64,000 nt of DNA from Haliotis rubra (Eukaryota), in contig NW_025766975.1 of assembly GCF_003918875.1 (NCBI RefSeq), positions 930,684 to 994,683 of the forward strand, in the 5' to 3' direction. Below, one piece after another: positions 5,568 to 14,774 of this stretch (its first letter is position 1; every line of letters starts with the position of its first letter). A model generated the notes under the pieces. It saw nothing but the letters and a program-made list of their open reading frames with translations. It did not search any database and was not told the origin of the DNA. The position numbers were made by a program, and so were the translations under genes.

Positions 5568-5695
5568 TTGCTGACGTCACATGCGATACGGGTACAGACG
5601 CCCCCTCGTCACATCCCGGGGGGTGGTGGAGGTCACTCTGTCCTACAAGTCCAAACAATTCTGCAAAGGAGCACCGGGCAGATTTGTGTATACAG
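5568..5695 (+). CDS. coe: COE/EBF transcription factor exon (C-terminal part of IPT/TIG domain); encodes [18 protein letters not shown] then, after a 1-nt frame slip in the G6 run at 5618-5623, [24 protein letters not shown]
   Basis: Acceptor tgtttag|TTG at 5566-5567 and donor ACAG|gtaagc at 5696-5697. Translation matches the recalled EBF1/Collier motif [38 protein letters not shown] almost exactly, but needs a -1 frame switch inside GGGGGG (5618-5623). Exon ends in phase 1, compatible with the next exon. Confidence 0.85.
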
Positions 5696-8600
5696 GTAAG
5701 CATAACTTATCTGTTTTCTTAACATATTGTCTTCCACAGCAGAGAATATCGGAATATTTTTCAACAGATGTAATGAGTAGTTTTTCGTTAATATTACATT
5801 ACTGCACACTGGCGTCATCGTTCATTAGAAAAAAAAATATTGTCCATCATTGCAATGGTGTATTGAATACATTTATACCATATCCTTTCACAACCAGTTA
5901 GAATTAGCCATCAGTTATGTTTTCATTGGTGGAAATGTTTATGTATCAATACAAACATACAGTCACCCTAAGCCGTGGTAAGTGGCATAGGGAATATTAT
6001 TAATATCAATAACACACATATTTGGCAGAAAATAATATATTTCAACAAACCTGTTTCTTTTGGTTTGGTAGAAATACATAGTCGATCATTACATGAAGAA
6101 ATGTCACAAACACATTTATTGTTCACTGAAATGATACATGAAATACACATAATATATATTACATTTACACACCAAGTCAGTATATCATAACCATATATAT
6201 ATTATATATCTTCAATAGCTTAATGCGAAATATGTTTCAATATCTACATTTATTCGTTCATTAAGACATTACAATGACATAAAGCCACACATATATTAAT
6301 TAAAACAATTAAATTATGTTTAATATTTTTGCAACTGTCTAAAGAACAATAACACACATGCGTAACTGTCTCGAGTGAATACTTTTAACCTTTTTAAAAA
6401 CTTCTCCAGGAAAAATGATCTTAGGCGCATACGTTAAGAACGGTTCACCAGTATATACACCACTTGGTTAAACCATCCATCTCGATCAATGCACCGAGCA
6501 AACAAATAAGCGTGTGATATTCCCATATTTCTCCAAACTGCAAATTAATATTCACGTAGAGTCCATCCCATGTAGCTACAATGCTGAATTCTACACATTA
6601 TTTATGCATGGACTAGCACGTGTATGAAAAGTCGTATAAATGCCAACATGAACACTCGCGTCAGTCGGTGCAATGGCTTAGAGGCAGACATATTTTCTTG
6701 CTCTCTCTTTTTATCAGGTTTTCCATTATCGATCGGTATAGCCTTCAATGATCAAAGCATAATGTCTTCACACTCGTTCTTGGAGGATATTTCTTGTGAA
6801 AGAAGGCGAGATTGTTCCGATAGCCTTGCTTGAGATCTGCAGATACACATTTAACGTATTAATTATACAGCGACAATGGTTGAAATAATTAAAACTGTCC
6901 ATTTGGAGCAGTCAGCAAATGCTTCACTTCAACCGTACTTGTAAAGGCTTGACAATGTTTTGGGTAATAAACAACGGACAGTTTTGTAAAATTCAAAGGA
7001 CATATAATCTCAATTGAATTTATTGCATATTGACAATGTGGGGTATACAACTAGGAATATATCTTTTTTCGCAAGTTGAATTGATCTGAACCTTTATCTT
7101 TGACAAAACAACAAATCAATTATTATTATTATATTTTTATTCATAAATAGACAAAGAAATTAAAGATAGGTATATTTTCAAGGTAGAAGCGGTATCAACG
7201 CTATATGATATACAAGAATATAATTATAGGTATATTATCAAGCACAAAAGCGGTATCAACTTTTGACCGTAATGTTTTGAGGACTGGTTGAAAGCACCGG
7301 TAACTTGAATGGTCATTTTAAGAAGAGAGATATGTCCCTGGTATGTCTGCTTGTCGCCTCGGATGCTTCCCAGTTTGTTTTGTGGACGGGATTTGATTTC
7401 CGGTTTACCAGTTCCTACTTCCGGCGAGTGTTGCGCGTATGTCCCGCCATTGTTCCCAACAAGAGCCACGTGTTGAGACACGGAAAAATATTCTTACCAG
7501 CACACCTGTCAAAATGTTTGCATTTTTGTTAAAATCGGTTGCAAAAAATACTCTTACTTTGTGGGAAATTTTACAAGATCAACATTGAAGCTTGTTTTTG
7601 ATTTATGCGATATCGTCACGAACTGTTGAAATAAGACCAAAATGTAAACAAGACGGAGACTGGTGCTCAGTCGGGATAAAGTGGCGCGTTCTCCAGACAG
7701 CTCGTTAACATTGTAGTGTTTAAATGGAATGCACAAGTATGTCTTCATATTTTCACATCAGACTTTTCTCCTGGGAAGGTGCAATCTGATAGCATTCAGT
7801 TACTTTAATTCTCTATCAGTAATCCCAGCTCACGGACCATCTCTCTCCCTTTACCAACATCAATTGTTTCTAACAGTAGCCCCCTTGGGATAAATTACTT
7901 AGCTTCCTCCGCCAATGCACAATGACATGTGCATAAATGAACCACGACTATACCGAAGGAGCCAGCGAAACGTCCATAATTAATGAATTTCACGTCAGAC
8001 AATATAAGGCGACAAATTGTTCTAGTCTAACAGTCATAGACGGGGTGTATGTATTGAAACAGATCCTGAGATGTTGGGCATCAAAGACCCTATCTTCTCT
8101 TAAAATTATTAATAAATGAAAGCTTCGATAGACGATCTCATAGTGAGCATCCTGTAAGCCTATTTACTGTTTCAGAGAGTGAAGAATTGGTAGTTTTCGT
8201 ACGTGTCTTAAGTGTGTACCTGCTGACATGCTACTATTTAAAGTAAACTGTTTTGGTAAGATAGTTTTTAATTCCACTATTTAAGGTATTTTAGGTATTT
8301 AACAATTTTAGGTCTTTCTAATTCCTAGTCATCATGAGTGAGAACCTATGTTTTATTGATGGTTTTCCTGATGTTATTCTTGTGACACAGGAAAAGACAA
8401 CACTGACTGTATGTTTCTCCGTTCAATTTTTTTCCTGCTGTCGAAACGCCAATGCAAATAAACAGTCGCTGTCAAAAACGCAACCGCTTCTAGAGTATTG
8501 ACAAGCCAATAAAACGGCCGTGCGTCAATTAGAGGTTTTGCGTTCTCTACAATTTGTCTCGATCATATACATGTCCAAATAAAGAGAAACGAACTCCGTA

Positions 8601-10035
8601 AACAAATATGCTAATATTAGGTGCAGGTTTCACTCTCAGGGAAATTCTCATTCATAATGATGACGTTGAACTAATCTTCCTCACGCCGACAGCGATGATG
8701 AAAGGCGTCCAGATCTCCCCCAAACCCTGGTGGCTTGTCGAATCGATAACAGTGTATTAGCTTGGCCATACTCGTATATGAACAGTTATTAACCTCTCAT
8801 AGATCCCCGACCACTTTTTCATCCAAGTCGCATGTCAAAGAGACAAGAGAAGAAAACAGCCAATCAGGAAGCGTCTCTTTAAACGAGTGATCCCGAAAAT
8901 TACCGATCACTTAAACGGCAATAGTCGGGAGCTGTCGTGATAGTGTGGAAATTTAGGAGAAGGACACACTCGCTGTTTCCGATCCTTCCTCTGTAGGAAC
9001 CTCCCCATTTCCTGACTGGGGCTTTGGTTTAACACCGGCAGAAGGGGGATATCGATCTTAAATACAGTCACCTCTTATTACATTGATAACTAAAAGCTGT
9101 CATTTTGTTTTCGTCATCCGCGAATATGGACTCAAATTTGGCTAGTGATCTCTGAGAGAACGCAGTCAAGCGAAACGCGAGCGCCCTTAAAACTATTAGC
9201 CAAAATTGGACGTCATGAACTCTTAGCTTCTTAATAAAACGGTTTTAACAGTAAATTCATATCAGGTAGGAACCAAACCGCAGACATTCACAGACTACAT
9301 AATTTTATACTCCCATAAACTATGCACCATTGTAAACCGCTATGCTGCATCGAACCGTACAGCGGGCTCCCGTGGATTAATTGTCAATTGACGGTATTGC
9401 GTGGATCCATCGTGAATGAACTTGACATATGCCAGCTTCGTCGCGCCATATTGCGTGTGTGCATTATTCATTTAAAGTGGTATCTCCTCATGAAATATTT
9501 ACCTCATGATATTGTTGCAAGCCAGAACTCTGGCTATTGTCGTTGCCAACACTTCTACCAAAGACACGCTTCATGGACCTCGTCAGTGAACACAAGCGGT
9601 TAGACAGTCAGTATTCCGAAGGGAAATGTCAAATCAAAATGGCTTCCGTACCAGTTCTGCAGCCGCGATGGCGGAACTATCCAGATTGAACGTGACACGC
9701 ATGACTGGAACAACATATGTCTAACACAGGATCTTTTGGCCAACAATATTACATATGGTACATGTAACATAGATAATATCACGAACGGCGGGGATTAAAG
9801 TAGAAATTACGTACTGAGTGTCAACACAAGTACAATTCCATAACTAACACCGTTCTCCTTTTCATGGTCATTGTGCGAACATCTCACGCTCATCATTAAT
9901 TAATATAACAATGCATAGCACGTCACGGTGCCGTGTTATCAGAAGGCTGATTTCAGGTTACATCGCTGCTTGTTTTGTTTTCTGGGAAATGACTCTTTAA
10001 GATTTTTTTATTGAATTTTATTTTTTTTCCCACAG

Positions 10036-10124
10036 CGTTAACAGAACCAACGATAGACTACGGGTTTCAACGCCTCATGAAATTGGTACCACGCCATCCT
10101 GGGGATCCAGAGCGACTTCCCAAA
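10036..10124 (+). CDS. coe: COE/EBF exon encoding HLH helix 1: (A)[29 protein letters not shown]
   Basis: Polypyrimidine tract then cccacag|CG acceptor (AG 10034-10035); donor AAA|gtaaga (GT 10125-10126). Joins the phase-1 end of the previous exon to give GCG=Ala. Near-identical to the recalled EBF motif [30 protein letters not shown]. Confidence 0.9.
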
Positions 10125-13897: not shown

Positions 13898-14146
13898 GTA
13901 AGACTTTTTTATAATTTTTATTCGTGTATTTTTTGCATTTCTTCAGTCCGTTTTTATTTTGCTTTCTAATTTCATTTCTATCTGTCTCTCTTGTATTTCG
14001 GAAATGGTCTTTTCGTTTTTTAAATTTAAAGGTCAGTAGGTATTGACAGATATGTGTGACGACAATTGGGAAGGGGGTGGAGCAAGACGTCCATTCCTGG
14101 CCGTTTTCGGTTTGTTTATTTTTCTTTTTTGTTTTATGTTCTGCAG

Positions 14147-14355
14147 TTGCTACGTCTCACTCGCCTCCCCATCAGTTCTCCGCCCCCTCGGGCCTGTCAG
14201 GGACTTGTGCCCCCGGGATTTTCTCTTTCTCACCTGCCAATATGATCACGGCGGTCAAACAGAAAAGTGCCTTTGCACCTGTCGTTCGTGCGCCGAGCCC
14301 GCCCCCTCCCCTTCCCGGCATTCAGTGCGGCTGGGTTTCACATCCGCTTTTACAC
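14147..14355 (+). CDS. coe: COE/EBF C-terminal exon: (V)[69 protein letters not shown]; 3' boundary uncertain (donor CAC|gttagt at 14356, or read-through to TAA at 14377-14379)
   Basis: Acceptor ttatgttctgcag|TT (AG 14145-14146), in frame with the phase-1 upstream exons. Contains the recalled conserved EBF C-terminal motif [26 protein letters not shown]. An aataaa at 14575-14580 could serve a transcript ending here. Confidence 0.7.
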
Positions 14356-14667
14356 GTTAGTAGACATTGCTTAATATAAAGGTCCTTATTGGTAATGCAT
14401 TATTTCTGATGGCGTCCTACCTTGGTTTGACGACATATGAATGTAGTTTCATAGTATTAAATTCAGTAGATTGTATATGTTGTCTGCTTTTATTGCGCTT
14501 GCTTTGTCGTTGTTTCTTGTAAACTTTGATTTATACTTTTTTTTCTATAAATGTTTTTACTTCTTCAAATGTATTAATAAATGTAAATACAATGTATACA
14601 ATATTGTATCTGAGCGGATGAATAGTATTTTGAAAAGGAAAGTAAAGAGTTGTTTATTTCATTACAG

Positions 14668-14774
14668 GAATGAGCAGCATAGTAGCGTCGCCGTTTACGA
14701 GCGTCAACCCATTCGCTCTGCCCACGTGCAACTCACAATCATACAGCAGCTCCATCGTGTCTCCTGCAAAATGA
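14668..14774 (+). CDS. coe: Candidate terminal COE exon: (G)MSSIVASPFTSVNPFALPTCNSQSYSSSIVSPAK then stop TGA at 14772-14774, read in phase 1
   Basis: Acceptor tttcattacag|GA (AG 14666-14667). In phase 1 it gives an open Ser/Pro-rich tail resembling the recalled EBF C-terminus (..LQAISGMIVPPM). Joinable in frame from the exons ending at 12175 or 13897, but not from 14355 with the donors visible. Confidence 0.5.

Follow-up and report, generated by a model that had tools for sequence, protein, structure and literature searches.

The 3' half of an ordinary invertebrate COE gene of an already known type, correctly interpreted as such in an earlier note, lies in the window, by which we mean the whole 64-kb stretch of DNA that was analysed. 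By splicing coordinates and correcting a run of G in exon a, we obtained seven + strand exons in which every intron is GT..AG, the phases are compatible and the frame is open to a TGA at 14772-14774, in agreement with the six to seven canonically spliced + strand exons that had been claimed. The gene was compared with a 36-kb locus of Elysia crispata (L001), an ENA contig (L002) and a Logan contig (L003), and with the predicted EBF/collier proteins of the molluscs Acanthosepion pharaonis, Elysia crispata, Aplysia californica, Ruditapes philippinarum and Mya arenaria. The order and boundaries of the exons are the same in L001 and L002. The features of the locus are as follows.

5568..5695, + strand: exon a, C-terminal half of the IPT/TIG domain; donor in phase 1; contains the G-run
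5618..5623, + strand: G-run of six G, of which five keep the frame (CCG GGG [G] GTG GTG); an apparent +1 insertion
5696..10035, + strand: intron a/b, 4340 nt, phase 1, GT..AG
10036..10124, + strand: exon b, HLH helix 1 and Pro-rich linker; 100% identical to Elysia and L002
10125..11020, + strand: H1/H2 intron, 896 nt, phase 0
11021..11213, + strand: exon c, single helix 2 (H2a), continuing to GQWEEG; donor in phase 1
12029..12175, + strand: exon d, Ser/Gly-rich region GYNRSQSSSVSPRGYGSNGSTPHS...GALGNM; donor in phase 1
13853..13897, + strand: exon e, micro-exon of 45 nt, symmetrical (phase 1/1), coding for (G)LDHFLRDEAGRLGA(G)
14147..14355, + strand: exon f, VATSHSPP... and the conserved C-terminal motif; acceptor in phase 1, donor in phase 0
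14668..14774, + strand: exon g, last coding exon; frame depends on the preceding exon

Exon structure of the 3' half

Exon a, bounded by the splice sites ttag/TTG and ACAG/gtaagc, encodes the last ~42 residues of the IPT/TIG domain, which adjoins the HLH on its N-terminal side; the N-terminal half of the domain is outside the window. In EBF1 it aligns to residues 49-96 of the IPT/TIG chain 3MQI and from residue 274 onward in 3MLP, and is 97.6% identical to the Elysia exon. When seven COE proteins were searched by tblastn (word size 2, E up to 10) together with motif scans, neither the COE-specific DNA-binding domain with its zinc-knuckle motif (DBD, PF16422) nor the N-terminal IPT exons were found on either strand of the 64-kb window, and both methods reproduced the earlier failure to find DBD exons in 1-5567. 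Before position 1, at more than 5.5 kb from exon a, the gene is expected to have one more IPT exon (ATPCIKAICPSEGWTTGG...VWSE) and some nine DBD exons. The exon that precedes the exon a counterpart in Elysia is 2.3 kb upstream of it, whereas here that intron exceeds 5.5 kb; the counterpart of intron a/b is ~7.2 kb in Elysia, compared with the 4340 nt given above.

Exon c extends 44 codons past helix 2 and has an alternative in-phase donor at 11198, the use of which would remove QWEEG. The motif GQWE[ED]G was found in cuttlefish, Mya, Paralvinella and L002, and is missing from the Aplysia protein P0065. Exon d was 76-80% identical to Elysia, Mya and L002 by tblastn, while exon e showed 87.5% identity (14/16 residues) to Elysia (L001 25434-25481) and to Aplysia P0065, and is absent from L002. 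The micro-exon is common to the gastropods and the window copy. The exon ends as corrected are 5695, 11213 (alternatively 11198), 12175, 13897 and 14355; the frame break of exon a, the 45-nt micro-exon and the two-frame last exon had been missed in the earlier reading. The gene model is usable for annotation, with the isoforms and the choice between the 11198 and 11213 donors given as predictions, since these were taken from predicted proteins of other species.

Intron lengths of 0.8-4.3 kb had been claimed, and this range fails for two of the six introns, which measure 249 and 312 nt. The introns had also been described as repeat-rich, which is not supported within the window because neither Tandem Repeats Finder (score >=80) nor self-BLAST for dispersed repeats within the window detected a repeat touching 5500-14800. 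Pfam searches of the eight longest intronic or overlapping ORFs on both strands gave no match at the curated cut-off, and therefore a nested gene or transposon ORF in the introns is without evidence.

The six-G run in exon a

The reading frame across the exons is interrupted at one place, by one extra G at 5618-5623, and the intact protein is therefore readable only after editing of the sequence. In tblastn searches exon a was split into two frames (5568-5621 and 5620-5694), and the uncorrected frame meets a stop in exon c. The extra G distinguishes the window copy: the orthologues have no G-run, with CCT GGA GTA GTT in Elysia L001 and CCT GGA GTC GTT in L002. Exon a differs from that of Elysia by 31 nucleotides and by 1 amino acid. 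On both sides of the G-run, dN was 0-0.04 and synonymous sites were saturated; because of this saturation of dS, no numerical dN/dS ratio against Elysia is given.

Assemblies often carry single-base length errors in homopolymers such as G6, and we regard the extra G as most likely an assembly error of this kind. If the extra G were real, this would not be the functional gene but a COE pseudogene of recent inactivation, a null allele or haplotype, or a dead copy left by duplication. The sequence as given does have six G with a stop following in exon c, and no protein of the source species was present among the database matches, which would fit a gene model broken at the G-run. Against this, the G-run is the sole defect in seven exons that all have canonical splice sites and open frames, and the 24 residues following it are 100% identical to orthologues of several phyla despite saturated synonymous change. 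COE is an essential gene. It is also reported to be single-copy in all non-vertebrates analysed (PMC2394523, PMC2990012), and we consider inactivation unlikely. That the six G are genuine and the gene either has a null allele or yields protein only by recoding seems very unlikely; candidates for such recoding would be transcriptional slippage and ribosomal frameshifting at CCC GGG GGG U. The probable homopolymer error has a practical side too: automatic gene prediction would fail at 5618-5623.

COE homology and the single helix 2

Judged from its sequence, the region is very probably the 3' half of a lophotrochozoan COE (Collier/Olf-1/EBF) orthologue, most probably that of a mollusc. In a protein database search, the conceptual protein matched "EBF [Acanthosepion pharaonis]" best (E = 1.3e-96). 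Next came Elysia, Ruditapes "collier-like" and Mya "COLL-like", and after these the annelids, arthropods, echinoderms and vertebrate COE1-4. Among the matches listed, at least 120 are COE proteins with E values from 1.3e-96 to 1e-62, led by molluscs. Identity over the core was 90% to the cuttlefish Acanthosepion, 88% to the sea slug Elysia, 85-86% to land snails and bivalves, 83% to an annelid and 73-78% to arthropod COE; that to vertebrate COE, measured over the whole query, was 47-57%. No database protein more than 90% identical to the conceptual protein was found. In Pfam, the COE1_HLH profile (PF16423), which describes the atypical helix-loop-helix dimerisation motif H1-linker-H2, matched with 106 bits against a cut-off of 27, with profile positions 1-44 of 44 covering residues 44-87 of the conceptual protein, and crystal-structure chains of COE1 and COE3 matched at 1e-59 and 3e-56 in a PDB comparison. 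Mollusc, annelid and sea-urchin COE proteins matched the same segments by tblastn, collinearly on the + strand, and in helices 1 and 2 no residue differs from the orthologues. Downstream of the helices the C-terminal region is Ser/Gly/Pro-rich. The earlier assignment to the 3' half of a COE gene is borne out by these E values, the profile score and the collinear matches; each peptide that had been quoted was found at its position, and the similarity to the COE family is significant. As for EBF1 and Collier, its homologues, DNA binding is predicted to involve a dimer held together by the IPT and H1LH2a parts.

Known mollusc COE genes include coe of Lottia gigantea (PMC2394523) and HasCOE of Haliotis asinina (Jackson et al. 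2010, PMC2990012). The mollusc genes are like that of the window in the IPT end, helix 1, linker, single H2a and Ser/Gly-rich region, with 85-90% identity. Drosophila Collier/Knot and other arthropod COE proteins likewise have a single H2a and a C-terminal end of the form ...PF.LP.C...SIVSP.K, but their core identity is lower. The sea-urchin COE (Strongylocentrotus purpuratus, P0029) has a single helix 2, the exon-f motif and a ...PFALPTC...SPGK end. In vertebrate EBF1-4 (COE1-4; structures 3MLP, 3MQI, 3N50, 3MUJ), the IPT end, helix 1 and linker are almost identical and the exon-f motif is common, whereas there are four paralogues in which H2d and H2a lie on two exons, and the window has H2a only.

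To locate helix 2 sequences, the whole window was scanned in six frames with BLOSUM62. At 11021 the invertebrate H2 scored 96 and the vertebrate H2d scored 80; no second helix 2 or H2d remnant was found anywhere in the window, where the next best score of 21-23 was background, and neither helix variant detected an H2-like sequence in the H1/H2 intron. The lone helix (residues 72-97) aligns to both helices of mouse/human EBF1 (3MLP). The junction K/E at 10124/11021 is in phase 0 and exon c ends in phase 1. The single copy of helix 2 does stand directly after this splice, as had been proposed. The ancestral layout has a phase-0 H1/H2a intron (i11-12) and a next intron in phase 1 that does not immediately follow H2 (PMC2394523). 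The phases observed here, 0 then 1, agree with this layout as described by Daburon et al. 2008 (PMC2394523), and the ancestral invertebrate arrangement suggested earlier holds. The vertebrate EBF type, H1-H2d-H2a with the duplicated helix 2 on a separate cassette exon, was not found at this locus. The single H2a repeats the published rule for all non-vertebrates. The survey of Daburon et al. 2008 already took in the Lottia and Capitella genomes (PMC2394523). The importance of one more lophotrochozoan genome obeying the H1LH2a / phase-0 intron rule is small.

Could the locus instead be an EBF paralogue of a vertebrate or cyclostome that has lost H2d or skips it? Taken singly, the exon-f motif matches vertebrate COE proteins best among the hits (58-66% identity), and lamprey transcripts without H2d have been reported (Daburon et al. 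2008, PMC2394523). However, molluscs are the best matches over the core, gastropods, bivalves and arthropods share the micro-exon LDHFLRDEAGRLGAG and C-terminal ...PFALPTCNSQSYSSSIVSPAK with the window, exon f also has homologues in the sea urchin and in L002 and L003, which are loci of non-vertebrate type, and the H1/H2 intron carries no H2d remnant, all of which leaves such a paralogue extremely improbable. Chance similarity or a low-complexity artefact with no gene present can be dismissed. The Ser/Gly-rich exon d does draw weak low-complexity matches elsewhere in the window, e.g. (AGT)n at 62 kb, but the E values to 1e-96, the fully identical helices 1 and 2, and the collinear exons with canonical splice sites and conserved phases are not of this kind.

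Probable alternative C-termini

The 3' end of the COE gene most likely gives alternative C-termini, with the last exon read in two frames. Following exon d or e (phase 1), exon g reads G-MSSIVASPFTSVNPFALPTCNSQSYSSSIVSPAK-stop, with the TGA at 14772-14774, while in phase 0, behind exon f, it gives GAA TGA (E-stop, 14671-14673). A d-(e)-g splice form would end in ...SIVSPAK. A d-f-g form would carry the exon-f motif and stop two codons into exon g in the other frame, ending in ...HE-stop. The latter reading agrees with the C-terminus of Ruditapes isoform X3 (P0003), ...GWAHTFYNE, which is of the exon-f type as in the window. In contrast, the sea-urchin P0029 model has both C-terminal motifs in one frame and one protein, whereas exon f of the window terminates in exon g.

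Exon f matches the C-terminal motif of sea-urchin and vertebrate COE, and homologues with the same GTTAGTA donor were found in L002 (5905-6141) and L003 (101-325). The Elysia locus differs from the window in this respect, since exon f was not detected in its 36 kb even at E up to 50. With exon f alone as the query, two invertebrate-type homologues (P0132 and P0135) were retrieved; this search gave no phyletic distribution because the matches were only short fragments, mostly vertebrate. The start of exon g, cag/GAATGAGCAG, is identical in the window, L002 and L003. On a modest reading, molluscs may switch C-termini by this conserved dual-frame last COE exon. The two-frame last exon, kept in at least three lophotrochozoan loci, may interest those who work on COE transactivation domains.

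A COE gene fragment and its family

The locus is a genuine fragment of a COE (Collier/Olf-1/EBF) transcription factor gene, as the earlier note had read it. Using mollusc, annelid and sea-urchin COE proteins as tblastn queries, seven collinear segments were detected and, beyond these, no significant match was found on either strand of the window. Exon borders were read from the sequence and spliced by coordinate.

Exons of the COE gene in the window
5568-5695, + strand, exon a, end of the IPT/TIG domain
10036-10124, + strand, exon b, HLH helix 1 (H1) and linker
11021-11213, + strand, exon c, helix 2 (H2), alternative in-phase donor at 11198
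12029-12175, + strand, exon d, Ser/Gly-rich region
13853-13897, + strand, exon e
14147-14355, + strand, exon f
14668-14774, + strand, exon g

All peptides quoted in the earlier note were found on the + strand, and its 10124/11021 splice junction is exact. Every intron is bounded by GT and AG with good polypyrimidine tracts, and the lengths are, in order, 4340, 896, 815, 1677, 249 and 312 nt, of which the first four agree with the range of 0.8-4.3 kb proposed before and the last two do not. The two in-phase donors of exon c lie 15 nt apart (11198, ACCG/gtcagt; 11213, GAAG/gttggt) and would drop or keep QWEEG; the matching residues are missing in the Aplysia COE protein P0065 and present in most other orthologues.

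The database search with the 250-residue conceptual protein returned 765 protein matches at E <= 1e-5, headed by 'EBF [Acanthosepion pharaonis]' (E = 1.3e-96) and followed by Elysia, Ruditapes 'collier-like', land snails, Mya 'COLL-like', annelids, arthropod collier/knot, echinoderm COE and vertebrate COE1-4. Identity over exons a-d was 90% with the cuttlefish, 88% with Elysia, 85-86% with snails and bivalves, 83% with the annelid Paralvinella and 73-78% with arthropods, and no protein among the database matches was more than 90% identical. Pfam COE1_HLH scored 106 bits (cut-off 27), and the solved COE1/COE3 chains 3MLP, 3N50, 3MUJ and 3MQI matched at 1e-59 to 1e-23. The similarity of the segments to COE proteins thus exceeds chance, and their assignment to the family stands. 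These matches point to a lophotrochozoan source, in all likelihood a mollusc.

The DNA-binding domain exons, reported missing from bp 1-5567, are absent from the entire window, as is the N-terminal half of the IPT domain, so the intron preceding exon a must exceed 5.5 kb. In EBF and Collier, the Ser/Gly/Pro-rich C-terminal region acts as a transactivation domain. Considering its family membership, the encoded part would supply such a C-terminal region and, by homology with EBF1 structures and the dimerisation experiments of Daburon et al. (2008), the IPT/HLH dimer interface (H1-Pro-rich linker-H2a).

Single helix 2 and the G-run in exon a

To count helix 2 copies, all six frames of the entire window were scanned with BLOSUM62 using the 20-residue H2 and the 22-residue vertebrate H2d as queries. 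The scores at 11021 were 96 and 80, respectively, while no site elsewhere in the window exceeded 23 (background mean about -21 to -25, sd 9-10) and nothing H2-like was present in the 896-nt H1/H2 intron. In the HMMER alignment with EBF1 (3MLP), the lone helix (residues 72-97) pairs once with H2d (345-367) and once with H2a (367-392), and therefore the window holds one copy of helix 2, in contrast with the two of the vertebrate protein. The H1/H2 intron is in phase 0 and the following intron, 44 codons past H2, is in phase 1, which fits the ancestral coe structure inferred by Daburon et al. (2008; PMC2394523) and bears out the ancestral invertebrate arrangement proposed in the earlier note. In the same study, which included Lottia gigantea and Capitella among the surveyed genomes, the H1LH2a motif was assigned to all COE proteins and the H2d duplication was specific to vertebrates. 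As such, a single helix 2 is the published rule for all non-vertebrates and this reading was already known; the gene is an ordinary COE orthologue of a kind already described for molluscs. A COE gene has been cloned from Haliotis asinina and its expression studied (PMC2990012).

Exon a has a broken reading frame. Six G at 5618-5623 (CCC GGGGGG TGG), where five would preserve the frame, split segments of 18 and 24 residues into successive frames as an apparent +1 frameshift, and the spliced frame with all six G kept runs into a stop in exon c. Orthologues read CCT GGA GT(A/C) GTT at this site, with no G-run. Aligned to its Elysia counterpart, exon a shows 31 nucleotide differences for a single amino-acid change; for the first 36 codons of exon c the figures are 24 and 1. 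With dN at 0-0.04 and synonymous sites saturated, this comparison points to strong purifying selection both before and after the G-run. Because the gene is perfectly conserved but for this one defect, which lies in a homopolymer, the extra G is very probably an assembly error. A real six-G run, marking a null allele or a young pseudogene, is the lesser possibility.

Micro-exon and probable alternative C-termini

In the 36-kb Elysia crispata locus (L001), exons a, b, c, d, e and g have boundaries identical to those of the window, with introns of 7.2 kb (a-b) and 0.78 kb (H1/H2). An ENA contig with bivalve-like residues (L002) carries exons a, b, c, d, f and g within 4 kb, and a Logan contig (L003) carries exons f and g. 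Exon e is a 45-nt micro-exon (13853-13897) of symmetrical phase 1/1 encoding (G)LDHFLRDEAGRLGA(G). Its counterpart in Elysia lies at L001 25434-25481, it is absent from L002, and among the matches examined it occurs in gastropods only (Elysia, Aplysia, Bradybaena and Candidula).

Alternative C-termini seem to arise at the 3' end of the gene. Exons d and e exit in phase 1, so that exon g is read as G-MSSIVASPFTSVNPFALPTCNSQSYSSSIVSPAK-stop, a tail (...SIVSPAK) conserved from molluscs to arthropods and in sea urchin. Exon f is entered in phase 1 and left in phase 0, after which exon g reads GAA TGA and the isoform would end in E and a stop. The exon f donor CAC/GTTAGTAG is conserved in L002 and L003, with GTTAGTA at window 14347-14362, L002 about 6141-6160 and L003 about 325. 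In the Elysia locus, no exon f could be detected. The exon g start cag/GAATGAGCAG is likewise common to the window (14660-14680), L002 (about 7003) and L003 (about 751), and the predicted Ruditapes isoform X3 has the C-terminus ...LQAGWAHTFYNE. Since both the donor and the exon g start are conserved, we infer from sequence and predicted proteins that the last exon is used in two frames. This feature, the micro-exon and the probable homopolymer error, all three overlooked in the earlier note, are the only points that merit passing on.

Repeats and other features of the window

The introns had been described as repeat-rich, which is not supported within the window: neither the tandem repeats of score >=80 nor the repeats dispersed within the window extend into 5500-14800. 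A Pfam comparison of the longest intronic ORFs, taken from both strands, gave no family above cut-off. Tandem arrays and a dispersed repeat lie downstream of the gene.

Repeats downstream of the COE gene
17253-18413, tandem array, 128 bp x 9
19971-20710, tandem array, 42 bp x 17
24030-24800, tandem array, 38 bp units
59966-61785, tandem array, 35 bp x 52
62028-62289, tandem array, (AGT)n x 87
63033-63645, tandem array, 21/42-bp units
29819-30072, 40028-40299, 47170-47417 and 63758-64000, copies of a ~250-bp dispersed repeat
36075-36305, 36327-36575 and 56527-56725, - strand, copies of the same repeat

Two very large minisatellite arrays (38168-39425 and 40671-43924; together about 4.5 kb) are built of related 21-22-bp units in about 58 and 149 copies, and their strand is strongly T-rich and C-rich with an AT skew down to -0.5. 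The ~250-bp repeat has at least seven copies in the window, with pairwise identity mostly 84-93% and 77-82% for some pairs, and is probably a SINE-like element. A 132-aa ORF at 28926-29324 (- strand), containing ...RPRSGRPRITTPVEDRYLRH and weakly matching a winged HTH (HTH_29) below the Pfam cut-off, resembles an N-terminal Tc1/mariner-type transposase remnant. Lastly, 47806-47877 (+ strand), which ARAGORN did not call as a tRNA, matched the Rfam tRNA family at 33.8 bits (gathering score 29) and may be a pseudo-tRNA or a repeat of tRNA origin.
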